DNA from: Polyangiales bacterium
GTDB taxonomy: Bacteria > Myxococcota_A > Polyangia > Polyangiales > Polyangiaceae
Length of the DNA stretch: 64,000 bases
NCBI GenBank assembly: GCA_038231275.1
Contig: JBBRLQ010000003.1
Span: 108,340-172,339, forward strand
Direction: 5' to 3'
The notes under the pieces are model-generated. The model had not been told where the DNA came from. It did not search any database and saw only the letters and a list, made by a program, of their open reading frames with translations. Each line of letters starts with the position of its first letter. Position 1 is the first letter of the stretch. Below, piece after piece: positions 22,468-46,028 of the stretch. The position numbers and the translations under genes are program-made.

Positions 22468-22480
22468 CACCCTCTCGCGC

Positions 22481-24538
22481 ATGCCCCGTCGCCCGCTCGC
22501 TGCCGTGCTCGTCCTCGGCCTCGGTCCCGCCCTCGCTGCCACGTCCGTCACGGCCTGCGCCCCCGACAAGCCGCCGGTCACGGTCATCGCACCGCCGGTC
22601 TCGCAGGTGCCGCCGTCGATGCAGCCCGAGCCGGCAACCGCCACGTCGCGCCCACCCGAGAAGGGGTACTCGGGCCACGGCGCCGAGAGTCTCTCGCCGG
22701 AGGTGATTGCGAAATTCGCGCCGCCCGCGCTTCCTCCCGAGCTGTCGCGCAAGATTCAATCGATGCTCGACGTGCGCGCGCCGAGCTCCGGTGTCCTCTC
22801 GCCCGACGGCAAGCGCCTCTTCTTCACGTGGGCCGTCACCGGCGTATCGCACGTGTGGCGCCTCGACGGACCGCAGCGCTTCCCCGTGCAGATGACCGGC
22901 GGTGAGGACGCGACCGGCATCGCCGCGGTCTCGCCCGACGGCAAGTACATCGTCCTCTCGCGCGATCGCAAGGGAGAGGAGTACCCCGGCCTCTACCTCC
23001 AGAGCGTCGAGGGCGGTCCGCTCACGGCCATCCAGCACAAGCCCAAGGTGCAGACGATCCTCGGCTTCGTCGCCGACGACAGCAAGAGCATCTACTTCCG
23101 CGCGAACGACAAGAAGCCCGACGCGTACGCCATCTACAAGTACGACGTCGCGTCGAAGAAATCCGAGCTCGTCTTCGACGAGGACGGGCTCTGGAGCGTC
23201 GACGATCACCGGCCTGACGGGCGCATGCTGCTGGCCAAGCACACCGGCGGCTCGTCGGAGGAGTACTTCGAGCTCGAGCCCAAGACGAAGAAGCTGACGC
23301 CGCTCTTCGGCCAAGGCGAAAAAGAGGAGTACGAGGCCCGCTACGCGCGCGATCCGAACGAGGTCCTCGTCATCACGCGCAAGCTCGCCGATTTCTCGCG
23401 CCTGTACCGCTGGAGCGCGGGCAAGTTCACGCCGGTAACGCCTGAGATGGCGCACGACGTCGAGGGCTTCCGCGTCGATCGCGCACGCGATCACGTGTTC
23501 TACGAGACCAACGACGGGGGCTTCACGCGCCTCGGCGCGCTCGACGGCAAGACGTACAAAGAGGCCAAAATCCCGGCATTTCCTGGCGCCGACCACGTGA
23601 TCATCGCGTCGACGACGGACGACGGAAAGTACGCGGTGCTGAGCGTCGGGACGAGCAAGGCGCCGTCGCAGAGCCACGTGCTCGAGTGGTCGACTGGCAA
23701 GATCATGCAGTGGCACTTGCCGAGCGCGCCGGAGATCGAGACGACGCGCTTCGCCCCGGCCCTGCTCGAGAGCTACCCGGCGCGCGACGGCACCAAGATC
23801 CCGATGTTCGTCCGCAGGCCCGAGGGGTGCGACAAAGCGGCCGACCCGTGCCCGGTCATCGTGGCGTTTCACGGCGGCCCGGAGGGGCAGGCGCGCCCCG
23901 GCTTCAGCACGCGAGCGCAGATCTTCGTCGACGCGGGCTTCGTGTACGCCGAGCCCAACGTGCGCGGCAGCGAGGGCTACGGCAAGCGCTGGGCGCACGC
24001 CGACGACGGGCCCAAGCGCCTCGCCGTCATTACCGACATCGAGGACGCGTCGAAATTCGTCCGCGCGAGCTGGGCGAAAAACGGCAAGGCCCCCAAGGTC
24101 GGCATCTTTGGCGGGAGCTACGGCGGGTACGCAACGTTGGTCGGCATGACCATGTTCGCGGGCGCGTACGACGCCGGCGCGTCGGTCGTCGGGATCTCGA
24201 GCCTCGTCACGTTCCTCGAGAACACCGCCCCCTACCGCCGCGCGCTCCGCTCGAGCGAGTACGGCGAGCTCGAGAAGGATCACGACGCGCTCGTGAAGCT
24301 CTCGCCCATCACGTACATCGACAAAGTGCAGGCGCCCCTCATCGTGCTCCAGGGCGCGAACGATCCGCGCGTGCCGGCCGGCGAGGCCCTCCAGATCCGC
24401 GAGGCGCTCGAGGCGCGGCACGTCCCGAACACCCTCATCATCTTTCCCGACGAGGGCCACGGCTCGCAGCGCCGAGAGAACCGCGTCCTCGAGATCGGCC
24501 ACGTGCTGCAATTTTTCCAGACGTATCTGAAGCGGTAG
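22481..24538 (+). CDS. S9 family prolyl oligopeptidase/dipeptidyl aminopeptidase lipoprotein
   Basis: Lipobox (LAATSVTAC). N-terminal beta-propeller. C-terminal alpha/beta hydrolase with GGSYGG nucleophile motif and an Asp/His catalytic region. Confidence 0.85.
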   Translation: MPRRPLAAVLVLGLGPALAATSVTACAPDKPPVTVIAPPVSQVPPSMQPEPATATSRPPEKGYSGHGAESLSPEVIAKFAPPALPPELSRKIQSMLDVRAPSSGVLSPDGKRLFFTWAVTGVSHVWRLDGPQRFPVQMTGGEDATGIAAVSPDGKYIVLSRDRKGEEYPGLYLQSVEGGPLTAIQHKPKVQTILGFVADDSKSIYFRANDKKPDAYAIYKYDVASKKSELVFDEDGLWSVDDHRPDGRMLLAKHTGGSSEEYFELEPKTKKLTPLFGQGEKEEYEARYARDPNEVLVITRKLADFSRLYRWSAGKFTPVTPEMAHDVEGFRVDRARDHVFYETNDGGFTRLGALDGKTYKEAKIPAFPGADHVIIASTTDDGKYAVLSVGTSKAPSQSHVLEWSTGKIMQWHLPSAPEIETTRFAPALLESYPARDGTKIPMFVRRPEGCDKAADPCPVIVAFHGGPEGQARPGFSTRAQIFVDAGFVYAEPNVRGSEGYGKRWAHADDGPKRLAVITDIEDASKFVRASWAKNGKAPKVGIFGGSYGGYATLVGMTMFAGAYDAGASVVGISSLVTFLENTAPYRRALRSSEYGELEKDHDALVKLSPITYIDKVQAPLIVLQGANDPRVPAGEALQIREALEARHVPNTLIIFPDEGHGSQRRENRVLEIGHVLQFFQTYLKR

Positions 24539-26945: not shown

Positions 26946-27698
26946 TTACTTCTTCCACAGGGCGATGCCGCCCAGGAGGCCCGCGATGTTCTCGGTGACC
27001 TTCACGTTGGAGGGCAGCTTCAGCTTCAGGTGCTTCGCGTTTCCGCCGCCGAGGAAAATCTGGCGCGGGTTCCAGATCGGGTTCACCTGCGCGATGACCT
27101 GACCGACGCGCTTGTTCCACTTCTTCTTCCCGACGTCGTCGAGGGCCTTCGCGCCGACGTACTCCTCGTACGTCTTGCCCTTCTTGAAGGGATGGTGCGC
27201 AAGCTCCAAGTTGGGCACGTACGTCCCGTTGACGAAGAGCGCGCAGCCGAGCCCCGTGCCGAGCGTGAGGACCATCTCGACGCCGTGGCCTTCGATGACG
27301 CCGTAGCCTTGGACGCCCGCGTCGTTCAAGACGCGCACGGGCCTTCGCGTGTGCGACGCGAGCGTGCCTGCGAGATCGAAGCCGGCCCACTTCGGGTGCA
27401 GGTTCGGCGCGGTCTTGGTGACGCCGTCGACGACGACGCCGGGAAATCCCACGCTCACGCGATCGAAATCGCCGAGCGGCTCGATGAGGCCGATGAGCTT
27501 GCGGAGGATGGCGTTCGGCGTCGCGGGCCGCGGCGTCTCGACGCGCGCGCGCTCGGTCAATGCTTCTCCGGCGGCGCCGAGGACCAGGGCCTTCAAGCCC
27601 GTGCCTCCGACGTCGATGCAGAGGGTTCGCGTTCCGGGACCGGTCTTGGTGGGCGCGACGCGGAGGCTCTTGGCGCGCTTGGGCGGGGTTCGTGCCAT
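26946..27698 (-). CDS. ppgK: Polyphosphate glucokinase (ROK family)
   Basis: ROK/PPGK motifs (LCIDVGGTGLK, GVIEGHGVEMVLTLGTGLGCALF). Start taken at the Met 250 aa from the stop. Confidence 0.8.
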   Translation of the reverse strand: MARTPPKRAKSLRVAPTKTGPGTRTLCIDVGGTGLKALVLGAAGEALTERARVETPRPATPNAILRKLIGLIEPLGDFDRVSVGFPGVVVDGVTKTAPNLHPKWAGFDLAGTLASHTRRPVRVLNDAGVQGYGVIEGHGVEMVLTLGTGLGCALFVNGTYVPNLELAHHPFKKGKTYEEYVGAKALDDVGKKKWNKRVGQVIAQVNPIWNPRQIFLGGGNAKHLKLKLPSNVKVTENIAGLLGGIALWKK

Positions 27699-27727
27699 CG
27701 GGCGAGTGTACAGGCTATCGTTGCCGC

Positions 27728-29593
27728 GTGGTGCGGAGCTGGAGCCTCGTCCTCTCCCTCGTGGTGGCGGGCGTCGTCGCCTGCGGCGCTCCTTCCAGGG
27801 CGCCTTCCCAGGCGCAATCGCTAGGGCGCGCCGCGTCGGCCGCCCCAGGCGCACGCGGAATCGTCTCGAGCAACGTTCGTCGCGTCGACTATGCCGGCTC
27901 CGCCGCGTGCGCAGGTTGCCATGCGGACCTTGCACGCGCGTTCGCGGCGTCGCCGATGCACACGATGACGCGCGCGATCGACGGCGCGGTCGTCCACGCT
28001 CCCTTCGACGGGACCGTCTTTCGCTTCAACGACGAGACGGTGACGCTCGACACGCGCGCTGGCGCGCGATGGGTTCACGTCGACACCGCCGAACGAGCGC
28101 GCCAGAGCTACCGCGTCACGCGCGTCATCGGCGGACGCGTCCGCGAGGATTTCGCCGGCGCGATCGGCGACGGCGGCGAGGAACGTGTTCTCCCGGTCTC
28201 GTACCTCATTGCGAAGAAGACGCTCCGCTACAAGGGCTACTCCGTCATGGTCCGCGAGCGCAGCCACCTCGCTGACGGCGCCGTGTGGAACCAGACCTGC
28301 ATTTTCTGTCACAACACGAGCCCGATGCTCCTCTCGGTCATGGGCGCCGTCGTGGCGCGACCGGCGTCTTACCAAGGCGTGCAGGTCGATCGGCTGCTTC
28401 CATCCGAGCGTCGCTGGTCGTACGAGATCACCGACGAGCGCGCCTTCTCGCGCGCGATCTCCGCAGAAATTAGGGCGATCGGCGGCGAGGTGGACGACGC
28501 GTCGCCGAAGCGCGCGGCCGCGCAGGGCATCACCGAGACGCGCGCCCGCTTTCGCGCGAAAGATCTCGTCGAGCTTGGGATTGGATGCGAAGCGTGCCAC
28601 GGGGGCAGCGCCGAGCACGTGAAGGCGCCGGGAGTTCGTCCGACGTTCCTTCCGACGAGCCCCTTCGTACGCGTGCGCGAAGGGACGACGCGCGCCGAGC
28701 AGATCTCCCACGCGTGCGCGCGCTGCCATCAAGTCCTCTTCTCGCGGTACCCATGGACGTGGGAAGGCGGCCGTCGCGATGGCCAGCGCCTCGGAGGAAG
28801 CAACATCAACTCCGGCGAGGCGCGCGACATGCTCCTCGGTGGCTGCGCGAAGGGCCTCGCGTGCCCCGCCTGCCACGATCCGCACGCGAAGGACGACCAC
28901 GCGCGCGAGCGGGCGATCGAGAAGCCCTCCGGAAACGGCGTGTGCACCGGCTGCCACGCCGCGTACGCGACGAAGGACGCCCTCGCGAAGCACGCGCATC
29001 ACTCGCCCGACGGCGCGGCCGGCGCCTGCATCGCCTGCCACATGCCCAAGAAGAACATGAGCCTCGCCTCAGGTCTCACCCGCTACCACCGCATCGGCTC
29101 GCCCACAGATCCGATGCGCGTCATGCTCGACCGCCCGCTCGAGTGCGCGCTCTGCCACGCGGACAAATCCGTCGAGCAGGTGGCAACCGACATGGAACGC
29201 CTCTGGGGCAAGCACTACGAGCGCGAGACCCTTCGTGCGCTCTACGGCGGGCTCGAAGTGAATGTGCTGCTCGCCACCGCCGCGCTCGGCAAGCCCCACG
29301 AACAGGCCGTTGCGCTCTTCGTCCTCGCCGAAAAAAAGCGGGCCGACGCCGCTCCCGTCGCGCTCGCAGCGCTGTCCCATCGTTATCCCCTAGTGCGCGA
29401 GTACGCCCGCGACGCGCTCCAATCGATCCTCGGCCGCGCCTGTCCAGTGGACGTGTACCAACCGGCCGATCGAGTCCGGGCCGCGGCCAAAAAATGCGGG
29501 GAATTTTCCCTTATCGCGCCTCTTCCGGCACAACATCACCATGAAGGCACCCCCGAACCGCCCCGCGACGACGCCGACGACGGCGAGGACTGA
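27728..29593 (+). CDS. Multiheme c-type cytochrome lipoprotein
   Basis: At least 8 CxxCH haem-binding motifs (CAGCH, CIFCH, CEACH, CARCH, CPACH, CTGCH, CIACH, CALCH). Signal peptide and lipobox (VVAGVVAC). GTG start at 27728. Confidence 0.8.
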   Translation: MVRSWSLVLSLVVAGVVACGAPSRAPSQAQSLGRAASAAPGARGIVSSNVRRVDYAGSAACAGCHADLARAFAASPMHTMTRAIDGAVVHAPFDGTVFRFNDETVTLDTRAGARWVHVDTAERARQSYRVTRVIGGRVREDFAGAIGDGGEERVLPVSYLIAKKTLRYKGYSVMVRERSHLADGAVWNQTCIFCHNTSPMLLSVMGAVVARPASYQGVQVDRLLPSERRWSYEITDERAFSRAISAEIRAIGGEVDDASPKRAAAQGITETRARFRAKDLVELGIGCEACHGGSAEHVKAPGVRPTFLPTSPFVRVREGTTRAEQISHACARCHQVLFSRYPWTWEGGRRDGQRLGGSNINSGEARDMLLGGCAKGLACPACHDPHAKDDHARERAIEKPSGNGVCTGCHAAYATKDALAKHAHHSPDGAAGACIACHMPKKNMSLASGLTRYHRIGSPTDPMRVMLDRPLECALCHADKSVEQVATDMERLWGKHYERETLRALYGGLEVNVLLATAALGKPHEQAVALFVLAEKKRADAAPVALAALSHRYPLVREYARDALQSILGRACPVDVYQPADRVRAAAKKCGEFSLIAPLPAQHHHEGTPEPPRDDADDGED

Positions 29594-29596
29594 ACG

Positions 29597-30862
29597 GTGG
29601 TACCGTCACGGTCAGGTGGGATGGCGATGAGGTTTCTGTACGGCGATTCGAGCCCGTTTCCGCTGCAGTACAACTTCCTGCAGACCCTCGAGGTCTTCAT
29701 GGCGTCGGGGACTCGCATCGTCGAGCTCGACGCCCAATCGCGCCGCGCGCAGACGCAGATCGGCGAGAGCTCGAACATGCGCGTGCGGGGGGTCGAAGCG
29801 CTCGACAACTTCCACCAGGCCGTCATGCGCGCGCTCAGGGACACGTCATCCCGCGCGACCGACAGCCTCACCGTCGACTACGCCCAGCAGCTCTCCGAGT
29901 ACGCCAACCGAATCGTCGAGGGGGCGCGCGCGCAGGCCACGTCGGCCACCGAGCGCGAGCTCGCGCAGGCCAACGCCGAGACCGAGCGCCGCCGGGTGGA
30001 AATCCGCGGCGCGATCGAAGCGTTCTTCAAGGTCGCGAAGCTGCCGGTCCTCGGCGCCACGATCGCGATGCGCCTCCCGCTCGCCAAAGAGCCCACGCAC
30101 GAGATGAGCGCCGTCATCTCGTTCGCGGAGGGCATCGTCGTCGGCTACACGCTCGTCGGCGACGCGCTCCCCGAGTGGCGCCACCCGCGAAAAATCAGCG
30201 AGTTCGCGCAAGGCATCAACCTCATGGTGGGCGCCAAGAAGAGCTGGTTCAAGAAGAGCGTCCAGCCGGAGCTGGTCGCCCTCGACGACCACATCTTGAG
30301 CGGCTTCGAGCTCTCGGACGACGCGGCGTTCCTCCGTCTCCGCAAGCGCCCCGAGCTGCCCGACGCGTACCTCTTCACGGTCCGCCGCGTCGACACGAAC
30401 CTCCTCGCGGAGGTCCAGTACGTCGACGATCCGGAGGCCCAGGGCCAGATGCCGACCGCCGTCGACGCCGGTGACCGCGTGCACCTCGAGCGCCTCTGGC
30501 AAATCCTGAGGAAGAGCGTCAACCCCGCCCTCGAGCACAAGACGCGCGTGGTCTCGATCCACCTCGACGGCGAAGAGATCTTCGCGAGCGACAAGGTCCT
30601 CGCCCTCGTCACGCGCCTCATCAAGATGCTCGCGCCGACGGTCGCCGAGATCGCGCGCCGCAGCCCGAACCAGCAAGAGCTGTCGCTCAAGATCGAGCAC
30701 GACGGCGGCCGTCGCGAAGAGATCTACGTGAAGAAGCAGGATCTCGTCGCCAAGCTCATCCCCCTCGCGCCGCCGGAGATCCAGGTCTTCGCCCCGCTCG
30801 CGCTGGGCCAGGCGGAGCCGTCGGTGATCACCACGATCCCGACGATCTCCACGGAAGACTGA
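29597..30862 (+). CDS. Hypothetical cytoplasmic protein immediately upstream of the MVP homologue
   Basis: 421-aa ORF with good coding look and no recognisable domains. Alternative starts at 29621 and 29627. Confidence 0.55.
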   Translation: MVPSRSGGMAMRFLYGDSSPFPLQYNFLQTLEVFMASGTRIVELDAQSRRAQTQIGESSNMRVRGVEALDNFHQAVMRALRDTSSRATDSLTVDYAQQLSEYANRIVEGARAQATSATERELAQANAETERRRVEIRGAIEAFFKVAKLPVLGATIAMRLPLAKEPTHEMSAVISFAEGIVVGYTLVGDALPEWRHPRKISEFAQGINLMVGAKKSWFKKSVQPELVALDDHILSGFELSDDAAFLRLRKRPELPDAYLFTVRRVDTNLLAEVQYVDDPEAQGQMPTAVDAGDRVHLERLWQILRKSVNPALEHKTRVVSIHLDGEEIFASDKVLALVTRLIKMLAPTVAEIARRSPNQQELSLKIEHDGGRREEIYVKKQDLVAKLIPLAPPEIQVFAPLALGQAEPSVITTIPTISTED

Positions 30863-30938
30863 CGCCGGTTCGTTTCGGAGCGACCGCGCGAAAATCGAGC
30901 GCCTCGCGCGCCGGTGGAACGCCCGAAAAATAGGCCTA

Positions 30939-30960
30939 TTGGCGCGGCACGGCGCGTGCT
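30939..30960 (+). promoter_or_regulatory. Candidate sigma54 (-24/-12) promoter upstream of MVP homologue
   Basis: cGGCACGgcgcGTGCt resembles TGGCACG-N4-TTGCW, with the GG and GC elements correctly spaced. It lies about 30 bp upstream of the MVP ATG. A GGAAGGAG ribosome-binding site follows at 30972-30979. Confidence 0.25.
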
Positions 30961-30989
30961 CCTCGGGACGGGGAAGGAGCACTCATCGC

Positions 30990-33011
30990 ATGACCGATCG
31001 CGACGTCCGCGAACGCGACATCCTCGTCGCCTCCAACGAGTACGCTTACGTGCAGGATCTCACCAAGGGCGACATCGTCCTCTACGTCGGGCCGACCAAG
31101 ATCAGCCTGAGCAACACCGAGCGCCTCGTGGACTTTCGGAGCGATCGCTTCGTGCCCGTGCGCAGCGACGACGGCGGGCTCGGCGTGAACCCGTTCGTCG
31201 CCGCGTCGTCGTCGCAGTACATCATCGTCGAGAACCCGACCAGGGACCCGACGCAGCGGCCGATCAAGGGGAGCAACGCGTCGATCGAGCTGCTCTCGGG
31301 GCGCAAGATCGTGGTCCCGGGTCCGGCGACGTTCCCGCTGTGGCCCGGCCAGCGCGCGAAGGTCGTCGACGGCCATGAGCTCCGCGAGCGCGAATACCTC
31401 GTCGTGCGCGTGTACGAGCAAGCGCCCGGCGACGAGCGGCCGATCGGCACCGAGATCATCGTGCGCGGCTCCGACACGAGCTTCTACATCCCGCGGACCG
31501 GCCTCGAGGTCGTCGCCACCGCGCAGGGCTACGTCCGCCTCGCGTGGCACCTCACGAAGAACACAGGGCTCCACGTGCGCGTGGTGAAACCGCACGTCGC
31601 TGCCGAGGGCGATCAGCTCCCTGCCGGCACCTACGCGGCGGGGACCGAGGTCTTCATCCACGATCGCGAGGGCTTCTTCTTCCCAACCGAGAGCCTCGAA
31701 GTGAAGGACATCGTCTTCGCCATCCCGCTCGCAGAAAAAGAGGGCATCTACGTCCGCGACATCGAAACCGGGCGCATCACGACGATCGCCGGCCCGTGCA
31801 GCTACCTCCCCGATCCCACGCGCGCGCTCGTCATCGAAAGGCGCCTCGCGCCGGAGCTCTTGGCGCTGTATGGGATCCATCCGGACGCGCGCGAGCGTGC
31901 GCTGTCGATCTACATTCCTCCCAGCTACGCGGTCCTCGTCATCGCGAAGAACAAGCGCGAGGTCGTGAAGGGTCCCGTCACGCGCATCCTCGCGTTCGAC
32001 GAGGAACTCGAGATCTTGCGCCTCTCGACGGGGCGTCCGAAATCCGACGAGGCGCTCCTCCCGACGTGCTTCCTCCAGATCGAGGGCAACAAGGTCAGCG
32101 ACGTCGTGCGCGTGAAGACCGCCGATCACGTCGAGCTGGAGATCGCGCTCTCGTACCGCGTGTCCTTCGTCACCCAAGGCGCCGAGGCGACGGACGCGGC
32201 GCGGTGGTTCCACGTGAAGAACTACGTGGGCCTCCTCTGCGATCACCTCGGCTCGATCCTCCGCGCCGCCGCCCGTGCCGCACGCATCGACGCGTTCCAT
32301 TCGTCGAGCACCGAAATCCTGCGAAGCGCAATTTTGGGCGAAAAACACGGGGAATCGCCGCGCGAGGGGCGCACCTTCGAAGAGAACGGGATGTGGGTCT
32401 ACGACGTCGAGGTCCTCGACGTGCGCATCCTCGATCAGGACGTGAAGAAGCTCCTCGAGGGCGCGCAGCGCGCCGGCATCGTCAGCGAGGTGAATCGCCG
32501 GCAAGAAGAGCTGCGCCTCTCGAGCGAAAAATTGAAGGAGGAGGTCGATCGCCAAATCTTCGCCTCGCAGATCGACACGATGCGGATGCAAGCCGAGCTC
32601 GAGGGCGCGCGGCGGCAGGTCGTCCTCGCGCAGGCGAGCTCGGCGATCGAGTCGCACAAAGTCGAGCGCGTCGGAAAAGCGACGAACGACGCCGAGGCCT
32701 TCACCATCTCGACCCGCGCGCGCATCGCGGCGGCGGAGCAAGACGCGGCGATCGAGGCGCTGCGCTTGTCGGGTCAGGTGGGCGCCTTCAAAGAACAGAT
32801 GGCCGCGATCCATCCCGAGCTCGTCGCGACGCTCAAGACCCTCGGCCATCAACAGCTCGCCGCGGAGCTGTCTCGAAATGTATCGCCCCTCGCGATCCTC
32901 GGCGGCGAGAGCGTGACCGACGTGGTCGAGCGCCTCCTCGGCTCTCTCCCGATCGGCTCCTCGGCGGCCCACGACGTGAAAAAGGTCCTCGCGATCCCAA
33001 AGACAAAATGA
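30990..33011 (+). CDS. Major vault protein (MVP) homologue, bacterial
   Basis: Colinear similarity to eukaryotic MVP from memory: [25 protein letters not shown] vs [35 protein letters not shown] vs [28 protein letters not shown] vs TADHARLQLQLAYNWHFEV. Shoulder/SPFH-like region and C-terminal coiled-coil cap helix are present. No signal peptide. Confidence 0.8.
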   Translation: [673 protein letters not shown]

Positions 33012-33075
33012 CCAAAGCCGACCTGGTACCCAGGACCTTCAGGTTAAATGACCAAAGCCGACCTGGTTACCCAGG
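33006..33075. repeat. Two copies of a 29-30 bp direct repeat (aaatgaccaaagccgacctggt[t]acccagg), the first containing the MVP stop codon
   Basis: Seen directly. Each copy contains a small palindrome cctgg-N3/4-ccagg. Confidence 0.6.
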
Positions 33076-33089
33076 CCGGCTTGGAGAAG

Positions 33090-35490
33090 TCACGTTGTCT
33101 CGTGGTGGGCGCAGAGGTTTATGCGCCGCTTGTGCCCGCCTCCAGGCTTTCGCCCTGAGGCTGTTCGGGAAATCTCTCGCGCGCCTTTCGCGTCGAGGGA
33201 CCACGGACCCTGCGGTCAAGCATTACGGCCTGCCGCCATCTATCGTTCGGTGAGGGAGCCTGCTCGGCCCACGGCCATTCGCGTGGCGTGGAATCGCGAG
33301 AGGTGCGTGTTGCTGTTCGCTTCACGCGCTTCGGTCAATCTCGCCCCTGGCGCATCCCTTTGCGTTCGTCTGCAGGCGCTCCGTCGAGCTCACCTGCACG
33401 TCTCGCCGCTTTCGCTGCGAGCCGCGGATGCTGATCCCTCGCGCTTGGTGTCGCCCACCACGCTGGAGGAACCTGAACCAGAAGGTACCGACCTCTGACG
33501 TCCATTGTCGTTTCTCGGGCACGGATCACCGGCTCCAGCCGACTCACCGCTGCCCCAACCGCACGCTGCACTACCTCGTTTTACGGAGACGATGCGTCAC
33601 GAACGACCGGAGGATTCACCCGAAAAACCAGCACCGCCTCGCGCCCCGCCCGTAAAGGCAAAAGCGTCTGAACGATGCAAGACGTCTGAAACAGTCACCA
33701 TGAAGTCCTACGAACCTTTGGCATTCGCAGGGCCCAATCATGCGCCTCATCTGGGAGGATTTGCGCGCACGACCAGCGCACCCGTTCGCCTCTGCTTCCT
33801 CACCGTCCGCGTCAGTCGCGGGGTCTCCGCACTCGGACCGGTGAACTTGCTCGGGCTAGGTCCCGCACCATCGAGCCGCCTTGCAGCAAACCCGGGGAAC
33901 GAGATCATAGATACGTCTGAGCTGTTTCTGCTTCCCTACACTCCGTCAACGAGCACCCGTACCTGGCTCTTTCCGGCTCATCGACACCGACTCTTCATCG
34001 GGCGTGTTCTTCAGTGGGATGTCGCCCACCGAAAACCGGAGATCCGCGCGTTTCACGACGCGCGTTGATCGCTTCGGTGAATCGCCTTCGCACTAGGGGG
34101 CTTGTTGGGCCGACCACGCACGCGACGACTTACCTCTGACGCCCCTGTCGCGATTCTCTCTTCGATACCAGGTCGTGCATTTTCGCGGTGCACGATTGCC
34201 GATTCGGAGAGACTCGCCGAGACCGCTTCTACCCCGCCGCCGTGACGCGACGAAGCTTTTCCCGGTCCAGAGCGCCTTCGTTCGACGGGAGATGCGCTGC
34301 TCTTCTTCCGCTCTCTCGAGCGGCGATTGCGCACCCTGTGCCCCGTGGATTTGCCCTGCGAGAGCTCCTCCTCGGGTCCCGAGCTGTCCTTTTGGGACAA
34401 CCCGGGCCGGCCTTGCGTGGTGTTGCGCACCCCGCCCGCCGGGAATCGGTCTTCGTGTCACCTACGGCTCCCTCCACCACGAATGACGTTCGCAGTGAAG
34501 AGCCTCGTTCGATTAGCGCGGGCCGCCTGGAACAGCGGACTCGACTAGGAACGATTCGTTACATCCGTAGGCTAGGCCCCCGTCCACCGCGTCCCCCGGT
34601 CCCTCTTTCGAGCGACTACGTAGTGGGGGAAGGGCGTCTCTGAGCCAGTACCTGACCGCCTGTCGACTTCTGCAAATGAGACATACAGCGTACGGGCACA
34701 TCCACGAGATCGCTTCCGCGCCCGCCTCGAGACTCCGTTCTTCTTGCGAAGCGTAGAGCCCCCATGCGTTTGCCGATCACGAGCACAGGGCCGGTTTTTG
34801 AGGCCGAGCCTGCACGCCGTGGGCAGCGCGCCGTGAAAAGTACGAACGAAGCGGATTCGCTTCGCCCACCCCGCCTTCTTATGCGCCCCGCTGCACGTTG
34901 CCGTGCAACTAAGACGTTTCGACGACGGGGCCGAGGTACAGCCACGGACCGACTGTCCTGAAGTGAAGGGCTCGCAGCCTTTTGGGCATTTTGCGAGCTC
35001 CCCTCCTTCGAAGGCAGCCGAGCATCCCTCTGTCGTCAGCTTGCTGCCGCGAAAGCCTGGAGTGCTTTCGCCGCGCCTCGCGTGGTCCATCGCGCCAAGT
35101 TTCCCTGGCGGAGAGGGGCCGCGGTTGGCCTCACATGCTGACCGAGATCTTCATTCCACCGCCCTCCCGCGAAGGCGGACGGTTTGCGCGAAGACCAGGG
35201 TGCTTTCCACCGATTGTCCCGAGCGCGTGCGGGGGTCGCCCCCTTTGCGCGCTCGCTCGGTCTCTCCGTCACGCCGCCCCTGAGGGGCATTGCGATCGTG
35301 AGACCAGCGCCTTTTTTTACCGCGGTACCAGCCGCCTCGCCCTGACGAGCCAAGCGTTTTGAGTTGCTGGTGCGGTTCAGTGGGTCGGGTTGGAAGGGTG
35401 TTGATCTTCCAGGGTCCGGCCTGCTGCAGCGCCCTCTCGGTTTCTACGATGCGTACTCGCTCGCGGATTGATGTGCCGCGAACTTCTGAA
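33090..35490 (-). ncRNA. Degenerate LSU (23S) rRNA-like region (relic pseudo-rRNA or highly diverged structural RNA)
   Basis: No ORF longer than 190 codons on either strand for about 3.1 kb. The reverse complement is colinear with bacterial 23S rRNA as recalled, for example tttttaccgcggtaccag vs TTTTCCTCGGGGTACTTAG near the 5' end, cggggtctccgcactc vs CGGGGTCTTTCCGTC, tttcacgacgcgcgttgatcgc vs TTCACGACGGACGTTAGCAC, and acggatcaccgg vs ACCGGATCAC. Similarity is only about 60%, and the universal motifs (sarcin-ricin loop, GCTACCTTAGGACCGTTATAG) are not intact. Confidence 0.45.
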
Positions 35491-35499
35491 GCAATAGAT

Positions 35500-35760
35500 A
35501 TCGAATCCCCCTAGACCGCACAACACAAAAAGAACGACTCAATCACTTTTTTTATCCACAGGTTGCCCACCGGAATTGTCCACAGGGTTTCCCCCGAAAA
35601 CGCGAAATAGCGCCTGTTTTCTCGCAAATTCGAGCGAGTTTTGAGAGACAGAAATGGCCTACAATTGTTTGATTGATGCAATTGATTGGCATGCCAATTC
35701 AAAACAATCGTGTTTCATTTGCTGTTTGAATGAGTGATTGAGAAATAGTGGTGCACGGTG
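35500..35760. promoter_or_regulatory. AT-rich island with two DnaA-box-like 9-mers and palindromic caattg/ttggcatgccaa elements
   Basis: TTATCCACA at 35552-35560 and TTGTCCACA at 35576-35584, same orientation, both followed by GG. GC content here is about 40% against about 68% in flanking DNA. The island lies at the 5' side of the 23S-like region relative to the minus strand. Confidence 0.4.
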
Positions 35761-36195
35761 CGGCGAAATCGCGCGCGGCCGCGAAAAGACGCTGGGGATC
35801 GCGTCTGGGTCAGGGGTGCGACACAACCGGAAAAGTGCACATGGAGAGGTCCCCTGCGCGCACCGTGGGAGCGAGGGCGTGTATCGGGGAAGTTGAGCGC
35901 GCGTGACGCCGTCGTGAACGCACGAGGTGGGAAGGTTCGGGGCGCGCCCCCGTAGGACCCAAGAGATGCCGCGCGTGCGCCACGACTGTGTCGTCTTCTC
36001 GGTTCCGGCGCTTCCCCCGGGCTACGTCGCACCTTCACCCACCCTCCTCTCGCCCTACACGCGCGAGCCGGAGCGGGTGCAGCGCCCGCTCCCCGAAGCG
36101 TGGCAGTCGAAGCGTCCGTGCCTCGCGTTTCCGGCCGTTTCCGCGGAGATCGTGGCCGCGCTCAACCGTTCCTGCTGAGGCCTGGCGCTCGGTTC

Positions 36196-37433: not shown

Positions 37434-40400
37434 GTGGACGGACGTCTCGTCATCGCTGAGCGCTTCGAGATCGAGCACCTCGTCGGTACGGGCGGGATGG
37501 GCGAGGTCTTTCGTGCGAAGGACCGCCTGACGGGCGGCCCGGTCGCGATCAAGCTCTTGCACCCCGGGATGACGCGGGATCAGGAGCGCTTCCGGCGCGA
37601 AGCGCAGCTGTTGGCCGAGCTCTCGCACCCACGCGTCGTTCGCTACGTCGCGCACGGCATCGCGAGCGGCGGGCGACCCTACATCGCGATGGAGTGGCTG
37701 GAGGGGCTCGATCTCTCCGATCGTCTCTCGCACGAGGGATTCACGCTGGACGAGGCGGTCACCCTTGCGCGGCGCGCGGCCGAGGCGCTCGGCGCATTGC
37801 ACGAACGCGGCATCGTCCACCGCGACGTGAAGCCCTCGAACCTCTTCCTCGTTGGCTCCGATCTCCACAGCGTGAAGCTGCTCGATCTCGGCATCGCGCG
37901 GCTCTCGACGCCGACGCGGCCGGCGACGCGCAGCGGGGTCATGGTGGGCACGCCGGGGTACATGGCGCCCGAGCAAGCGCGCGGCGCCAAAGAGATCGAC
38001 GCGCGGGCCGACGTGTTCTCGCTCGGCTGCGTCCTCTTCGAGTGCATCGCGGGGCGACCGGCGTTCGTGGGGGACAACGCGGCAGCGCTCCTCGCCAAGA
38101 TCTTGCTCGACGAGTCCCCGCGCATCCTCGACTACCGGAAGGACGCGCCGCCGGAGCTCGACGATCTCGTGTCGCGTATGCTGGCGAAGCATGCGGGCGC
38201 GCGTCCGGCCGACGGGCACGCGGTCGCGCGGGAGCTCGCGCAGATCGCGCGCGGCGGGCTCGATTCGCAGCGGCGGAGCAGCATTCGTGCGCTGCGCGCG
38301 ATCACCGGCGGGGAGCGGCGCCTCGTGAGCATCGTGATGGCGTCCTCCATCCTCACGCCGGTCGAGACGCCGGTCGACCTTGCGGCGGAGACGCTGACTG
38401 GCGACACGTCGGTCGCGTCGCTCGACATGCGCAGCGTCGTCGCACCGTTCGGCGCCAAGTTCGAGAGCCTCGCCGATGGGTCGGTCGTGGTGGCCGTGAC
38501 GGGGAAGGGCAGCGCGACGGATCAAGCGGCCCACGCGGCGCGCTGCGCGTTGGCGATTCGCGCGCACATGCACGACGCGCACATGGTCTTGGCGACGGGC
38601 CTCGCGACGGTGACCGATCGCACGCTCTATGGCGACGTGCTCGATCGCGCCGCGGCGCTGCTCGTCGAGGCGCGACGGGCCTTCGCGCAGGTCGGGCCCG
38701 ACGGGACCGTGAAGAGCGCGCCGCTCCCGCTGCCGGTGCGCCTCGACGAGACGACGGCGGGCTTGCTCGATCTCCGTTTCGACGTCGAGGGGGACGACCT
38801 AGGGCTGACGCTGCGAGGCCCGCGCGCCGAGGAAAGCCCGACGCGGACGCTCCTCGGCATGGCGACGCCGTTCGTCGGGCGCGACCGCGAGCTCGCGACC
38901 CTGCACGGGCTCGTGGAGGAGTGCATCTCGGAGCCGGTCGCCCGCGTCGTCCTCGTGACGGCGCCGCCAGGAGGCGGGAAATCACGCCTCCTCCACGAGC
39001 TCCTCCTCCAGGCGCGGAACCTCCACGACAATGTCGAGGTGTGGCTCGCGCGCGGCGATCCGATGAGCGAGGGCTCGCCGTTCCACATGCTCGCGCAGGG
39101 GATCCGGCGCGCGTGCGGCTCGGTCGAGGGAGAGCCGCTCGCGGTTCGTCGGCAGAAGCTGCGTGCGCGTGTCGCCCGGCACATCGAAGGAGACGAGCTC
39201 ACGCGCGTGACGGAGTTCGTCGGCGAGCTCGTCGGCACGCCGTTCCAGGGAGACACGAGCGTGCAGCTCCGCGCCGCGCGCCAGGACGCGATGCTGATGG
39301 GTGACCAGATGCGTCGCGCGTGGGAGGACTGGATCGCCGCGGAGTGCCTCGCGCAGCCGGTCGTGATCGTCCTCGAAGATTTGCAGTGGGGCGATCTGCC
39401 GAGCGTGAAGCTCATCGACGCCGCGCTCCGCAACCTCTCCGAGCTGCCGCTCCTCGTCGTCGCGGTGGCGCGTCCCGAGGTGCACGAGGTGTTCCCCAAC
39501 CTCTGGTCGGAGCGCGGGCTTCAGGAGGTGCGCCTCGGGCCGCTCGTGAAGAGCGCCAGCGACCGTCTCGTTCGTCAGGTCCTTCCCGACGCCACCCAAG
39601 AGGAAGTGACTCGGCTCGTCGAGCGCTCCGCCGGCAACGCGTTTTATCTCGAAGAGCTGATTCGCGCGGTCGCCGAGGGTCGCGGCGGCGAGCTACCAGA
39701 GACGGTGCTCGCGATGGTGGAGGCACGGCTCGAGCGGCTCGAGCCCGAGGGGCGGCGGCTGCTGCGCGCCGGGAGCGTCTTCGGGCAGGTGTTCTGGCGA
39801 GGCGGCGTCGCGGCGTTGCTCGGTCAGTCGCTCCGCGCGAGCGAGGTCGACGAGTGGCTCGGCGAGCTCGTCGCGCGCGAGATCCTCCTCCAGCGACGCC
39901 GCTCGAAGTTTCCAACGGACGCCGAGTACGCGTTCCGGCACGCGCTGGTGCGCGAGGCGGCGTACGCGATGCTGACGAGCGAGGATCGCGCGCTCGGGCA
40001 CAAGCTCGCCGGCGAGTGGCTCGAGGAGGCGGGCGAGACCGACGCGGTGGTGCTCGCCGAGCACTTCGACCGCGGGGGCGTGCCCGCGCATGCGGTGAGG
40101 TGGTACCGCCGCGCCGCCGAGCACGCGCTCGAGGGAAATGATTTCGAGGCGGCGACGGCGCGCGCCGAAGGGGCCATCGCGGCGGGCGCGGCGGGCCAGG
40201 AGCGCGGCGCCTTGCGGCTGCTCCAGGCGAGCGCGGCGGACTGGAACGGCGACACCGCCTCGGCGATTCGCTTCTCCGAGGAGGCGCTGCATGATCTCAC
40301 TCCGGGCACCGACGACTGGTACCTCGCGGCAGGCGAGGTCGCGCTCGCGAGCCGAAAAATGGGCGATTTCGAGCGCGTCAACGCGGTGGGCCGCGCGGTG

Positions 40401-41363
40401 CGTGTGTTCGACGAACTACCGCAGTCGACGCCCGCGCGCCTCGTCGGCACGGCGCGGGTGACGGGAGCCCTCTACCTCGCCGGAGGGTTTGCGCCCGGCG
40501 ACGCACTCCTCGCGGTGCTCGAGAAGAACGGCGCCGCCCTCGCCGCGAACGAGCCCGCCGTCGCCGCATGGATCCATTTCGCCCGCGGCGCGCGCGCGCT
40601 CTGGAGCGCGGAGGTCGAGGAAGATCTGATCTCGACGCTCGCCGCGATCGAGGAGTTCACGCGCGCCGGCGATCTCCGCAACGTGTGCATGAACCAGGTC
40701 ACCGCCGGCTTCATCCTGTCGTCGATCGGCCAGCTCGAAGAGTCCGAGCGCATCCTCCGCGAGGCGCTCGACGCCGCCGATCGCATGGGCCTCCGCGCGA
40801 CCAGCCTCCTCGGCCGGCAAAATCTGGGCACCACGCTGGCGCGCCTCGGCCGGCTCGACGAGGCGCTCCTCATCGAGCAAGAGGCGCTCGAGGGATACCG
40901 AACGCAAGGGGATCACGTCTGGGAGGCGATCTCGCGCGTGTACCTGGGGCTGCTCTTGCGCCTCCAGGGAAAGCTGCCCGAGGCCGAGCGCGAGATCCGT
41001 CACGCGCTCCAGGCCGTCCGCTTCGCGCCGCCCGTCCACGCGGCCGGTCTCGGCGCGCACGCGCTCATCCTGCTCGATTTGCCCGATCCGGCGGCGGCGC
41101 GCGCGGCCGCGGAGCAGGCGATGCGCATCTTCCGCGAGGTGGGCGGCGTGCTCGAGGGCGAGTCGATGATCCGCCTGGTCTACGCGGAGTCTCTCTGGGC
41201 GACCGGAGACCAAGACGCTGCGCGCGAGGCGATCGCGGAGGCGCGCGATCGGCTGGTCGCGCGCGCCGACGCGATCAAGAAGAAGGCGTGGCGAAAATCC
41301 TTCCTCGAGCGCGTGCGCGAGAACATCCGGACCCTGGCACGCGCCGGGGAGTGGCTCCGGTAG
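37434..41363 (+). CDS. Ser/Thr protein kinase fused to STAND-type AAA+ ATPase and TPR repeats (1309 aa)
   Basis: N-terminal kinase domain (GTGGMGEVF, VAIK, HRDVKPSN, DLG, APE). Central P-loop NTPase (VLVTAPPGGGKSRL). C-terminal TPR-like helical repeats. Confidence 0.85.
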   Translation: MDGRLVIAERFEIEHLVGTGGMGEVFRAKDRLTGGPVAIKLLHPGMTRDQERFRREAQLLAELSHPRVVRYVAHGIASGGRPYIAMEWLEGLDLSDRLSHEGFTLDEAVTLARRAAEALGALHERGIVHRDVKPSNLFLVGSDLHSVKLLDLGIARLSTPTRPATRSGVMVGTPGYMAPEQARGAKEIDARADVFSLGCVLFECIAGRPAFVGDNAAALLAKILLDESPRILDYRKDAPPELDDLVSRMLAKHAGARPADGHAVARELAQIARGGLDSQRRSSIRALRAITGGERRLVSIVMASSILTPVETPVDLAAETLTGDTSVASLDMRSVVAPFGAKFESLADGSVVVAVTGKGSATDQAAHAARCALAIRAHMHDAHMVLATGLATVTDRTLYGDVLDRAAALLVEARRAFAQVGPDGTVKSAPLPLPVRLDETTAGLLDLRFDVEGDDLGLTLRGPRAEESPTRTLLGMATPFVGRDRELATLHGLVEECISEPVARVVLVTAPPGGGKSRLLHELLLQARNLHDNVEVWLARGDPMSEGSPFHMLAQGIRRACGSVEGEPLAVRRQKLRARVARHIEGDELTRVTEFVGELVGTPFQGDTSVQLRAARQDAMLMGDQMRRAWEDWIAAECLAQPVVIVLEDLQWGDLPSVKLIDAALRNLSELPLLVVAVARPEVHEVFPNLWSERGLQEVRLGPLVKSASDRLVRQVLPDATQEEVTRLVERSAGNAFYLEELIRAVAEGRGGELPETVLAMVEARLERLEPEGRRLLRAGSVFGQVFWRGGVAALLGQSLRASEVDEWLGELVAREILLQRRRSKFPTDAEYAFRHALVREAAYAMLTSEDRALGHKLAGEWLEEAGETDAVVLAEHFDRGGVPAHAVRWYRRAAEHALEGNDFEAATARAEGAIAAGAAGQERGALRLLQASAADWNGDTASAIRFSEEALHDLTPGTDDWYLAAGEVALASRKMGDFERVNAVGRAVRVFDELPQSTPARLVGTARVTGALYLAGGFAPGDALLAVLEKNGAALAANEPAVAAWIHFARGARALWSAEVEEDLISTLAAIEEFTRAGDLRNVCMNQVTAGFILSSIGQLEESERILREALDAADRMGLRATSLLGRQNLGTTLARLGRLDEALLIEQEALEGYRTQGDHVWEAISRVYLGLLLRLQGKLPEAEREIRHALQAVRFAPPVHAAGLGAHALILLDLPDPAAARAAAEQAMRIFREVGGVLEGESMIRLVYAESLWATGDQDAAREAIAEARDRLVARADAIKKKAWRKSFLERVRENIRTLARAGEWLR

Positions 41364-41369
41364 CGCGCG

Positions 41370-44300
41370 ATGAAGAAAGCGGAGCCGGCGATCGTGCCGC
41401 AGGGCGGAGGCCCTCCGGCCGAGACCGAGGCGGGGGGTGACGACGACGAAACGGACGCGCCGGCCGGCCTCCCGATCGTCGAGCCAACGCACTACGCGAT
41501 CATGGGGGAGATCGCGCGTGGAGGTCAGGGCCGCGTCCTCTTGGCGCGCGATCGGCGGCTCGGTCGCGAGGTCGCCCTCAAAGAGATGCTCAAGGTCTCG
41601 TCCTCGTCGGTCGGACGTTTCGTCCGCGAGGCCATGATCACCGCGCGCCTGCAGCACCCTGGCATCGTGCCCGTCCACGAGGCGGGCCGATGGCCCACCG
41701 GCGAACCGTTCTACGCCATGAAGCGCGTCTCGGGGCGTCCGCTCGACGAGCTCGTCGCCGCGGCGAAGAGCCACGAAGAGCGCCTGGCGATGCTGCCGCA
41801 CGCGATCGCGGCCGCCGACGCGATCGCGTATGCGCACGCGTCGGCCATCCTCCATCGCGACTTGAAGCCGGCGAACATCCTGGTCGGAGAGTTCGGCGAG
41901 ACGGTGGTCGTGGACTGGGGCGTGGCCAAGCGGCTCGACGAGGACGACACGCCGCTCAGCGATCTGGATCCGCTGGCCATGCAAGGCCACACGCGCGTCG
42001 GCGCGGTCGTGGGGACGCCGGCGTACATGGCGCCCGAGCAGGCCGCGGGAGGCCCCGTCGATCGTCGCGCGGACGTGTACGCGCTCGGCGCGACGCTCTA
42101 CCACGTGCTCAGTGGAGTGCCGCCCTACGCGAGCGTGAGCTCCAGCGATCCGGCGCCCCACCTCGCGGTCCTCGACGGCCCGCCGGTTCCGCTCGCGGAG
42201 CGCGCCCCCGGAGTGCCTCACGAGCTCTGCACAATCGTCGACAAGGCGATGGCGCGCCGTGCCGAGGATCGGTACCCGAGCGCGAAGGAGCTGGCCGACG
42301 ATCTCAAGCGCTTCGCCGCCGGTCAGTTGGTCGCCGCGCATCGCTATTCGACGCGCGCGCTCGTCGGGCGTTGGCTCCGCCGTCATCGCGCCGCGGCGCT
42401 GCTCACGAGCCTCTTCGTCGTCGCGCTCGCCGCGGTCGGCACACTGAGCGTCCGGCGCGTCGTAGAGGAGCGCAACGCCGCGCGCGCGCATCAACGCGCG
42501 GCGGAAGAGGCGAACCAGAGCCTCGTCGAAGCCAACGACGCGCTCAGGCTCCAGACCGCGCGTGCCGAGCTCGATCGCGATCCGACGGCGGCCGTCGCGT
42601 GGCTGAAGACGTACCCGGCCACCGCGCCCGAGCAGCGCGCGGCCGGTGCCATCGCGCATGACGCATGGACACGGGGGGTCGCGCGCCACGTCTTCTCCCG
42701 CGACGAGCCCCTGCTCGCGGTCGCCATGTCGCCCGACGAGCGGCACCTCGCAGTCACGGGCCGCGCCAGCCTCACGCTCTACGATCTCGCCACCGGCGTC
42801 GGGCGCACGTTCGCGGCCACGGAGGGAGTGGGCGTCGATGCCGTCTTCTCGCCCGACGGAAAGACCCTGTGGACGAGCGCCGGTCACGTGCTCCTCCTCT
42901 GGAACGTCGGGACCGGAGCCTCGCGGCGCATCGACGTGGGCCGCGAGGCAGGAGTCCTGGAGCTCACGGGCGACGGTCGCTTCCTGCTTGCCCGCGACGT
43001 CCAGCATCGAACGGTGACGCTCCGCGACGTCGTGGGCGACAGGGAGGTGCCTCTGCCCGCCGAGGCCGTTACCGGCGCGTTCCTCCCGGACGGAAAGACC
43101 GTGGCGATCGCGACGGGCACAGCGCTCTTCTTCCAGCCGCTCGGCGGCGGCCCACCGGTTCGCGCCGCGACGCTCGCGTCCGCCTCCTCGCCCAAGGACG
43201 TGCGTGTCTCGGGCGATGGTCGGCTCCTCGCCGTGTCCTCCGACGTCGGGATCGACGTCTACGACGCACGCGGCGCGCTCGTCCGCCACCTTCGCGCGCC
43301 AAACTTCCAGCCCTCGATGCGCGGGCTCCTCTTGGACAAAAGCGACCGCGTCATGTCGTGCAGCCGGCTCGGGCAGGTGTGGGTCTGGAGCGTCGCGTCG
43401 GGGGAGTCGCACGTCCTCGGTGAGGCGAGCTCGCCGTGCTCGGAGATGCGCCTCGCCCCCGACGGCGTGAGCCTCGTGATGCCCGGCGTCGCGAACCAAG
43501 TTCAGGTCTGGGATCTCGTGGGCGGTGGGCTCCGGCGCCTCTTCGGTCACTCCGCGACCGTCAATCGGATCGCGATGTCGTCGAGCGGCGGATGGGTCGC
43601 GTCGGTGTCCGGTGACCAAACGGCGCGCGTCTGGCGGCTCGGCGAAGGGGACTTGCGCGTCCTTCACGGCGTCACGTCGCACTCGCGCCTGGCCGCCGAT
43701 CGCTACGTGCTCACGGCGGAAAAATCATCGCACGCGCTCGAGCGGATCGATCTCCGCACCGGCGACACCAAGACGGTGAGCGGTCCGCGTCCGCTCTCGT
43801 GGGGAACGGCGACGTGGCTCAGCCCGGACGGCGAGGTCGCCGTGTACGCCGACGACACCGAGCAAATCTGGCGGTGGGACGCTGCGAGCAACACCGCTCG
43901 ACGCTGGTTTCGGTACGTGCGCCCGGGCGCACGGCACGTCGCGCACGATCTCTCCCCGGACGGCCGCTTCTTCGTGGGCGCCTCCACCGATTTCTCCGTC
44001 GTGCTCGTCGACCTCCAGACGATGGCGCAGCGCGAGCTCGGGCGGCACGACGCCATTCCCGAGGCCGTCAAATTCTCGCCCGATGGAAAGCTGGTGGCGT
44101 CCGCGGCGCGCGATCGGCTCGTTCGGGTCTGGGACCTCGAGAAGGGAACGTCGCGTGCGTTCGCGGGCCATACGGCGTTCTTGTGGGACGTCTCGTTCTC
44201 GTCGGACCGCCGGCACGTCGCGTCGGCAGGAGCGGACTCGACGATTCGCGTGTGGGACCTCGCGAGTGGAGAATCGCAGGTCCTTCGAGGCCACACCTCC

Positions 44301-44621: not shown

Positions 44622-44678
44622 CGCGGCTGGCGAGCACGCTCGCATCGATCGCAGGCGGATGTTCTTCGACGCTACGCA

Positions 44679-46028
<1,350 letters not shown>

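Follow-up and report, generated by a model that had tools for sequence, protein, structure and literature searches.

A short bacterial homologue of the major vault protein in a Polyangiales genome, and a predicted sigma-54 promoter conserved upstream of its gene in myxobacteria

Vaults are among the largest particles of eukaryotic cells, and their function is still unknown. The mammalian vault is a barrel with two halves, each of which contains 39 major vault protein (MVP) chains. Here, we describe an MVP homologue encoded by the open reading frame (ORF) at positions 30990-33011 of a 64,000-nt stretch of DNA from a Polyangiales bacterium (GenBank assembly GCA_038231275.1, contig JBBRLQ010000003.1, positions 108,340 to 172,339), referred to below as the window. 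Eukaryotic MVP (human, rat, and rabbit; PDB 4V60, 9BW5, 11DR, and 9Z4W) is a soluble, cytoplasmic protein, as is the window protein, and both share the order of repeats, shoulder (SPFH2), long cap helix, and tail. The N-terminus of MVP forms the waist that joins the two vault halves, and repeats R3-R5 form the PARP4 binding site (PMC12280208).

MVP homologues of Corallococcus, Plesiocystis, and several Bacteroidota were reported by Daly et al. in 2013 (PMC3762200). A 2019 preprint treated MVP in Myxococcales, Cytophagales, and Oscillatoriales and speculated on a role as a ligand-binding or sequestering scaffold (bioRxiv 10.1101/872010), and a 2023 preprint described phage copies of MVP. The named bacterial MVP-like proteins are Corallococcus H8MNI3, Plesiocystis A6FXM1/A6FXE2, Enhygromyxa A0A0C2D5V5, Hyalangium A0A085WQF1, Saprospira H6L4P8, and Microscilla A1ZGE7 (PMC3762200; 10.1101/872010). 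Several of them are myxobacterial and have an MVP fold predicted in silico, as is the case here, and they were compared with the window protein by published description only. The cyanobacterial MVPs (Moorea/Lyngbya F4Y3B4, Oscillatoria K9TKX8, and Microcoleus K9WB38) are likewise bacterial homologues. However, these are full-length proteins (~880 aa) that share >50% identity with eukaryotic MVP and cluster with the eukaryotic sequences (PMC3762200; 10.1101/872010), whereas the window protein has 673 aa, is ~28% identical, and belongs to a separate myxobacterial clade. Among the papers found, none describes an experiment on a bacterial MVP or a bacterial vault. Myxobacterial MVP homologues are already known in silico (2013, 2019), and the window protein is a further, uncharacterised one. 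What the present analysis adds is the conserved promoter and dyad predicted upstream of the myxobacterial MVP gene, which are not mentioned in PMC3762200 or 10.1101/872010.

The second group of related systems comprises the SPFH cages (HflK/C, flotillin, prohibitin, stomatin, and QmcA). SPFH proteins are described in PMC12624060 as forming rings that build domes. Their SPFH-type domain leads into a long helix, and bundling of these helices closes the dome, as is likely, by analogy, for the window protein. The SPFH cages differ from it in that they are membrane-anchored or membrane-abutting, have no vault-repeat stack, and match it at E 1e-7 or weaker.

The preliminary description of this DNA had placed the ORF exactly where it was found, and its start is accompanied by a ribosome-binding site (RBS):

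30990-33011, + strand: coding sequence of the MVP homologue (ATG at 30990, TGA at 33009-33011; product of 673 aa plus stop)
30972-30979, + strand: RBS GGAAGGAG, with the AAGGAG core at 30974-30979, 10 nt 5' of the ATG (sequence inspection)

The ORF is real; the length of 674 aa given earlier had included the stop codon. The GC content at third codon positions (GC3) was 0.87, compared to 0.45 at second positions (GC2), which identifies the ORF as strongly coding; these values are normal for DNA of roughly 69% GC, as in the window, and the GC3 resembles that of the adjoining genes. The N-terminus of the 673-aa protein is charged. Neither a membrane segment nor a signal peptide was detected (maximum 19-residue Kyte-Doolittle mean of 1.0), in agreement with the cytoplasmic location proposed earlier.

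The product of ORF 30990-33011 is a genuine MVP-family protein of a short, bacterial type. In Pfam, residues 367-482 matched positions 3-118 of the 118-position MVP_shoulder model (PF11978) with E 2e-32 and 112 bits (cut-off 25). Vault_4 was matched by residues 244-269 with 25.5 bits, above the cut-off of 22.9, and residues 321-357 matched Vault_3 with 25.6 bits, slightly under the cut-off of 28.8. Across the 58 family members (57 related loci plus the window protein), MVP_shoulder was found in 58/58, Vault_3 in 58/58 (E down to 2e-9), and Vault_4 in 56/58, and a weak Band_7 match occurred in 5/58. When the protein was compared with all PDB sequences by phmmer, exclusively MVP chains were matched (E 9e-35 to 2e-33), in a colinear alignment of query residues 133-624 with MVP residues 278-788. 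This alignment includes local blocks of >50% identity, as the preliminary description had recognised. The profile of the 58 family members matched rat MVP with E 3e-56. When aligned by hhalign with human MVP (the sequence used is identical to PDB chain 11dr_A), the family profile reached a probability of 99.9 and E 2e-33 over 514 columns with 28% identity; it pairs query residues 131-661 with human residues 276-857, a stretch that runs from R6-R9 through the shoulder and cap helix into the first part of the cap disk.

Structure comparison gave the same result. The 12 top Foldseek matches of the predicted structure in the PDB were all MVP (E 1e-35 to 1e-30), and a crystal fragment that contains only R1-R7 of MVP was matched at E 3e-12. 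SPFH proteins (HflK/C, flotillin, prohibitin, and stomatin) appeared at E 1e-7 to 1e-3 only, in line with the presence in the window protein of an SPFH fold followed by a coiled-coil helix. The preliminary claim of homology to MVP, colinear over repeats, shoulder, and cap, was thus borne out by sequence, profile, and structure. The likeness is not confined to a generic SPFH/band-7 domain because MVP-specific repeats match (Vault_4, Vault_3, and the R1-R7 fragment), the cap helix and tail align as well, and SPFH proteins reach only ~1e-7.

The single-chain AlphaFold2 model, calculated from the 58-sequence alignment, had a mean predicted local distance difference test (pLDDT) score of 77.5. The architecture derived from it is as follows:

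Residues 1-66, 30990-31187, + strand: N-terminal segment and first repeat-like module (module at ~15-60, low-confidence model)
Residues 67-360, 31188-32069, + strand: five confident beta-sheet vault repeats (model, Pfam, MVP alignments, and Foldseek), with limits at 67-131, 133-190, 191-233, 235-310 (inserted helix), and 312-360 according to model secondary structure
Residues 365-482, 32082-32435, + strand: MVP shoulder (SPFH-like) domain (PF11978 and model)
Residues 483-629, 32436-32876, + strand: cap helix, single and uninterrupted, 147 residues (model; aligns with the human cap helix)
Residues 630-673, 32877-33008, + strand: C-terminal tail (low model confidence; aligned to the start of the human cap disk)

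The pLDDT of the shoulder was mostly 83-94, with one 10-residue block at 76. The tail is short (pLDDT <55), and residues 596-661 were aligned with human residues ~785-857 by hhalign. About six repeat modules were counted in the model, five of them confident and one, at the N-terminus, of low confidence, compared to nine (R1-R9) in MVP, which agrees with the earlier expectation of fewer repeats. The last four align with R6-R9 of MVP, and the first two have no clear register. These two were not assigned to R1-R2, as BLASTP and hhalign each allowed more than one register, all of them weak, and residues 1-144 gave no MVP match in a single-sequence phmmer search. Residues 1-66 are the best conserved in the family, with 52% of their positions invariant; this fraction is 25% for the shoulder, and the middle of the cap helix has no invariant position. 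The cap helix is conserved at its ends and variable in its middle.

The window protein differs from eukaryotic MVP in having about three repeats fewer (which ones is uncertain), in its ~28% identity, and in its predicted bacterial sigma-54 promoter, and it has neither the conserved waist residues nor the NAD+/ADP-ribose pocket. The residues of the human pocket, waist, and PARP4 contacts were taken from published lists (PMC12280208). Several of the residues found in place of those of the human pocket show little or no variation among the family members: N367 and V391 occur in 58/58 members, and K368 and D418 in 57/58. R169 is the sole conserved residue of the four PARP4 contacts, and D214 lies opposite an alignment gap. 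PARP4, TEP1, and vault RNA were not found in the genomic neighbourhood, to which, and not to whole genomes, this search refers. Rfam, which includes vault RNA, gave no match at the gathering threshold in the window, and no tRNA was found.

A predicted sigma-54-type promoter precedes the MVP gene and is conserved in myxobacterial genomes. The preliminary description had proposed it as a candidate at 30946-30959. The upstream elements are the following:

30945-30960, + strand: sigma-54-type -24/-12 promoter CGGCACGGCGCGTGCT, with GG at 30946-30947 and GC at 30958-30959 (predicted transcription start ~30971)
30867-30883, + strand: candidate activator site 1 GGTTCGTTTCGGAGCGA, which matches GCTCC-N5-GGAGC, 62 nt upstream of the -24 element
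30884-30900, - strand: weaker dyad-like site GCTCGATTTTCGCGCGG, which abuts site 1 (position weight matrix, PWM, score 6.9; tentative)

The promoter element has 2 mismatches to TGGCACG-N4-TTGCW. The element is present in the window, and its support comes from the related loci and not from the window alone. When the loci were anchored on the conserved N-terminal RERDIL motif, with GG and GC obligatory and <=3 mismatches allowed, GG-N10-GC was found upstream of the gene in 48/56 scorable sequences (55 loci and the window), 36 of them with <=2 mismatches. The consensus of these elements, YGGCAC-N5-TYGCW, is informative also between the fixed GG and GC. A first pass, anchored on the tblastn start and limited to <=2 mismatches, had given 34/56 loci, compared to a background of 0.009 per 145 nt. 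The element was missing upstream of the gene in the non-myxobacterial loci scanned. Two spacings were observed: the element ends either 12 nt before the ATG (~18 loci), or is followed by a leader of ~17-26 nt with an RBS, as in the window and other loci. The spacing near the ATG, with no RBS, was seen in L013, L014, L016, L017, L019, L020, L027, L029, L034, L037-L039, L042, L050, L052-L055, and L057. With an element this close to the start codon, the mRNA would have almost no leader.

The dyad motif GCTCC-N5-GGAGC was derived by expectation maximization (EM) from 47 related upstream regions, where it starts 45-153 nt (usually 45-90 nt) upstream of the first nucleotide of the -24 element. Its log-likelihood was 486.6, compared to 342-392 in 24 control EM runs on random locus DNA, and the best dyad sites exceeded the control 95th percentile in 45/47 regions. 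In 839 kb of locus DNA, 34 of the 42 strong matches sit <=350 nt upstream of the gene. In the 64-kb window, the site at 30867-30883 is the sole match on either strand with a PWM score >=9. The dyad is a candidate site for an activator of the enhancer-binding protein type. Similar arrangements have been described for the targets of Myxococcus xanthus NmpR (GCGCA-N5-TGCGC) and PexR (CACCG-N6-CGGTG), where a -24/-12 promoter is likewise combined with a 5-N5-5-type dyad that lies ~60-170 nt upstream of the inferred transcription start and is sometimes tandem (PMC11841059; PMC12754779). The dyad found here is unlike these published sites, so that the activator is probably another protein. A text search of the literature for the dyad half-site returned nothing useful.

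Next, we examined whether the MVP gene has conserved neighbours. The genes concerned are these:

29597-30862, + strand: 421-aa gene (no Pfam and no PADLOC match)
27560-29593, + strand: multihaem cytochrome c gene, with its stop 4 nt before the start of the 421-aa gene
44679-46028, + strand: FHA-domain sigma-54 activator gene, the third of three consecutive regulatory genes

The MVP homologue is a stand-alone gene, with no conserved neighbour across the 57 loci. When 14 neighbouring window proteins were searched against these loci by tblastn, no match was found for the 421-aa gene, the multihaem cytochrome, or two small downstream ORFs. When all locus ORFs were clustered de novo, no cluster other than MVP extended to >7 loci, and those that ranked next to it were antisense shadow ORFs within the MVP gene. 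The 421-aa gene had been suggested as a possible partner, separated from the MVP gene by 128 bp. The gene exists, but the distance between its stop and the ATG of the MVP homologue is 127 nt, and its role as a partner was not upheld by the tblastn search. It probably forms a gene pair with the multihaem cytochrome gene, since only 4 nt separate the two. The true start of the latter is probably 3' of 27935, where the overlap with an opposite-strand ROK-family gene ends.

The sole recurring neighbour is an S9 prolyl-oligopeptidase (21458-24538, + strand), located 6.5 kb upstream of the MVP gene in the window. Its relatives, which are 58% identical, lie directly downstream of the MVP gene in 2/57 loci (L003, 11044-12942, - strand; L031, 8015-9934, - strand). 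This recurrence is probably a remnant of local synteny. Ser/Thr kinases occur in ~22/57 loci and were not retained as partners, as this was judged to be the background level, itself a rough estimate. An NfeD or FtsH-type partner gene was not conserved near the MVP gene in the 57 loci. A defence island was also discarded, as PADLOC gave no match. The same holds for a phage origin, because no relative was found in viral contigs and a viral structure library returned generic SPFH proteins only. Further downstream in the window (37434-46028, + strand), genes for a Ser/Thr kinase-AAA_16-TPR protein (1309 aa), a Ser/Thr kinase-WD40 protein (1083 aa), and the FHA sigma-54 activator (449 aa) follow one another and look like a kinase-to-FHA-activator signalling module. 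The presence of the activator gene at 44679-46028 indicates that this genome uses the sigma-54 system; a link between this activator or kinase module and the MVP promoter was not found.

The end of the MVP gene overlaps a repeat:

33006-33027 and 33046-33067, + strand: exact 22-nt direct repeat AAATGACCAAAGCCGACCTGGT with a spacing of 40 nt, overlapping the MVP stop codon

Each copy holds a CCTGG/CCAGG hairpin, and the RNA fold of 33005-33095 has an energy of -32.7 kcal/mol (z = -3.56). No T-tract was found at this repeat region. A role of the repeat pair in termination or in stabilising the 3' end is possible. The 3.2 kb directly 3' of the MVP gene (33012-36195) showed no frame-specific GC3 signal in any frame; the GC content is 0.61-0.65, dipping to 0.49-0.53 at ~35400-35900. 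This region gave no Rfam match at E <=1 and contained no tRNA, and nothing similar to it was found in the rest of the window or among the 57 loci. A long downstream gap was rejected as a family feature, because the median gap in the other loci is 55 nt.

The distribution of the family is broader than had been thought. A word-indexed protein search gave 493 clusters at 90% identity, of which the best 120 are all 649-765 aa long. The relatives are labelled at their sources as 'hypothetical protein', 'major vault protein', 'Shoulder domain', or, in some JGI records, 'HflC'. When clusters at 50% identity were searched exhaustively, 1136 had E <=1e-3 and 508 had E <=1e-30. The 57 loci came from a scan of one genome per species and are mostly from Myxococcota (Myxococcaceae, Archangium, Polyangiaceae, Labilithrix, Haliangium, and Kofleriaceae), with a few from Planctomycetota and Acidobacteriota and one from a metagenome-assembled genome (MAG) labelled Clostridia. 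With 57 species-level genomes, >490 clusters at 90% identity, and the publications of 2013 and 2019, the view that a myxobacterial copy would be a rare and notable case no longer holds. Long bacterial relatives of 820-900 aa have the shoulder at ~500-700 and sometimes a Band_7 match. Against human MVP, the median score of the short family was 108 bits (n=120), compared to 58 bits for the long relatives (n=129). This difference is suggestive only, as eukaryotic and cyanobacterial diversity lies outside the comparison.

In a neighbour-joining tree, the short-form family splits by myxobacterial group into Haliangium/Kofleriaceae, Labilithrix/Polyangiaceae (including the window), and Myxococcaceae/Archangium. 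The window protein pairs with that of a Myxococcales MAG (L001, 70% identity), beside Labilithrix and Polyangiaceae. Because the tree follows the taxa, codon usage is host-like, and the bacterial promoter and dyad are conserved, we infer a long vertical residence in Myxococcota with no recent eukaryotic transfer. The sequences from Planctomycetota, Acidobacteriota, and the Clostridia-labelled MAG (L002, L004, L005, L008, L011, L045, L046, and L048) nest within the myxobacterial tree and have no sigma-54 element; this points either to an export of the gene from Myxococcota or to mis-binning of contigs. Archangium/Archangiaceae loci form two MVP subclades with unlike promoter spacing (L010 and L049; L029, L034, L038, L042, L052, and L054), which suggests two MVP paralogues in the Archangium lineage.

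The best reading of these data, which we consider probable, is that of a conditionally expressed, stand-alone, cage-forming MVP, with the assembly deduced by analogy. Transcription would proceed via sigma-54 RNA polymerase and one dedicated enhancer-binding activator. The MVP homologue would then be made only upon a signal, for example stress or development, as expression that depends on an activator is expected to be conditional. The protein would self-assemble like MVP and SPFH-family proteins, with shoulders and repeats side by side and the cap helices bundled into a closed dome. Two domes may pair via the highly conserved N-termini, a likely interface, and the resulting barrel would be less long than a eukaryotic vault; such a cage would form without PARP4, TEP1, vault RNA, or a human-type NAD+/ADP-ribose pocket. 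The PDB entries of HflK/C, flotillin, prohibitin, and stomatin matched by Foldseek are all ring or dome complexes, which is consistent with assembly. Several observations weigh against this picture. In the window by itself, the sigma-54 pattern occurs at chance level (6 matches, 7.3 expected). The dyad PWM was trained and scored on the same upstream regions, to which the control EM runs are a partial answer. A gene for an enhancer-binding protein is not consistently located near the MVP gene (1/57 loci). Assembly is argued by analogy, and the model is of a single chain only. The pLDDT of the model was <50 both in residues 1-66 and in the C-terminal tail. The N-terminal 135 residues match human MVP weakly (E 0.01-0.03) and in several registers (BLASTP, hhalign), so that the N-terminus is not established as a homologue of the waist-forming R1. 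The human waist residues F6, I7, R9, N22, I36, D39, and N40 are replaced by R, D, L, T, S, N, and T, and of the 13 residues of the human NAD+/ADP-ribose pocket, only K506 and L517 are kept (plus R/K at 504).

The alternative to which we give most room, although it is unlikely, is a true MVP homologue that does not form a closed cage. It would be soluble, either monomeric or assembled into an open oligomer, and would serve for instance as a scaffold with a ligand-binding or sequestering role. The three missing repeats, the replaced waist residues, the low-confidence ends of the model, and the fact that no bacterial vault was reported in the literature found all fit this explanation, and the family-conserved N367, V391, K368, and D418 at the pocket positions are compatible with a different conserved site. 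However, an exposed lone helix of 147 residues with conserved ends is hard to explain if it is unbundled, and the matched SPFH and MVP structures are ring, dome, or cage assemblies. Very unlikely, by comparison, is an ordinary SPFH/band-7 scaffold that forms a membrane-attached dome and resembles MVP through its SPFH domain and coiled coil alone. The shoulder is of SPFH type, SPFH proteins also appear among the Foldseek matches (E 1e-7 to 1e-3), Band_7 is weakly matched in a few members (5/58), and the name 'HflC' is attached to some JGI relatives; yet MVP chains match at least 23 orders of magnitude better than any SPFH protein, ~360 residues of MVP-type repeats lie N-terminal to the shoulder (Vault_3, Vault_4, and the R1-R7 fragment), and a hydrophobic segment, a signal peptide, and a conserved NfeD/FtsH-type partner are all lacking.

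The two remaining explanations concern the origin and the context of the gene. That it forms an operon or partner pair with the upstream 421-aa gene is highly improbable. The two genes are on the same strand and 127 nt apart, but the product of the 421-aa gene found no match, either by tblastn in the 57 loci or in Pfam or PADLOC, and the start of this gene 4 nt after the cytochrome stop suggests coupling there. Moreover, the 127-nt gap is occupied by the dyad and the predicted sigma-54 promoter, and because these elements lie in the intergenic gap, the MVP gene appears to have its own promoter. Least credible of all is a recent horizontal acquisition from a eukaryote (the preliminary description had raised horizontal transfer), or an assembly contaminant. 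MVP is best known from eukaryotes, and such transfer has been proposed for the cyanobacterial MVPs with their >50% identity to eukaryotic ones (PMC3762200; 10.1101/872010); here, by contrast, the GC3 of 0.87 is like that of the neighbours, identity to human MVP is only ~28%, the tree tracks myxobacterial groups, and conservation of the sigma-54 promoter and dyad extends across them. The evidence thus opposes transfer in its recent form.

Returning to the conditionally expressed, cage-forming MVP, a more far-reaching proposal would be that of mini-vaults: closed six-repeat MVP cages with no partner proteins or RNA, switched on by a sigma-54 activator, in a lineage near the prokaryotic root of the eukaryotic vault. 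We regard this combination as doubtful. The lineage may lie near that root, because the family appears to be vertically inherited and scores above the sampled long forms against human MVP (medians of 108 and 58 bits, respectively).

A bacterial version of MVP would offer a simple and genetically tractable system for the role of the MVP shell, with one gene and an apparent sigma-54 switch. The promoter and dyad provide two handles, one on the inducing signal, through the activator, and one on the induction of the protein. The taxon-congruent tree and the long residence in Myxococcota that it suggests bear on the origin of eukaryotic vaults.

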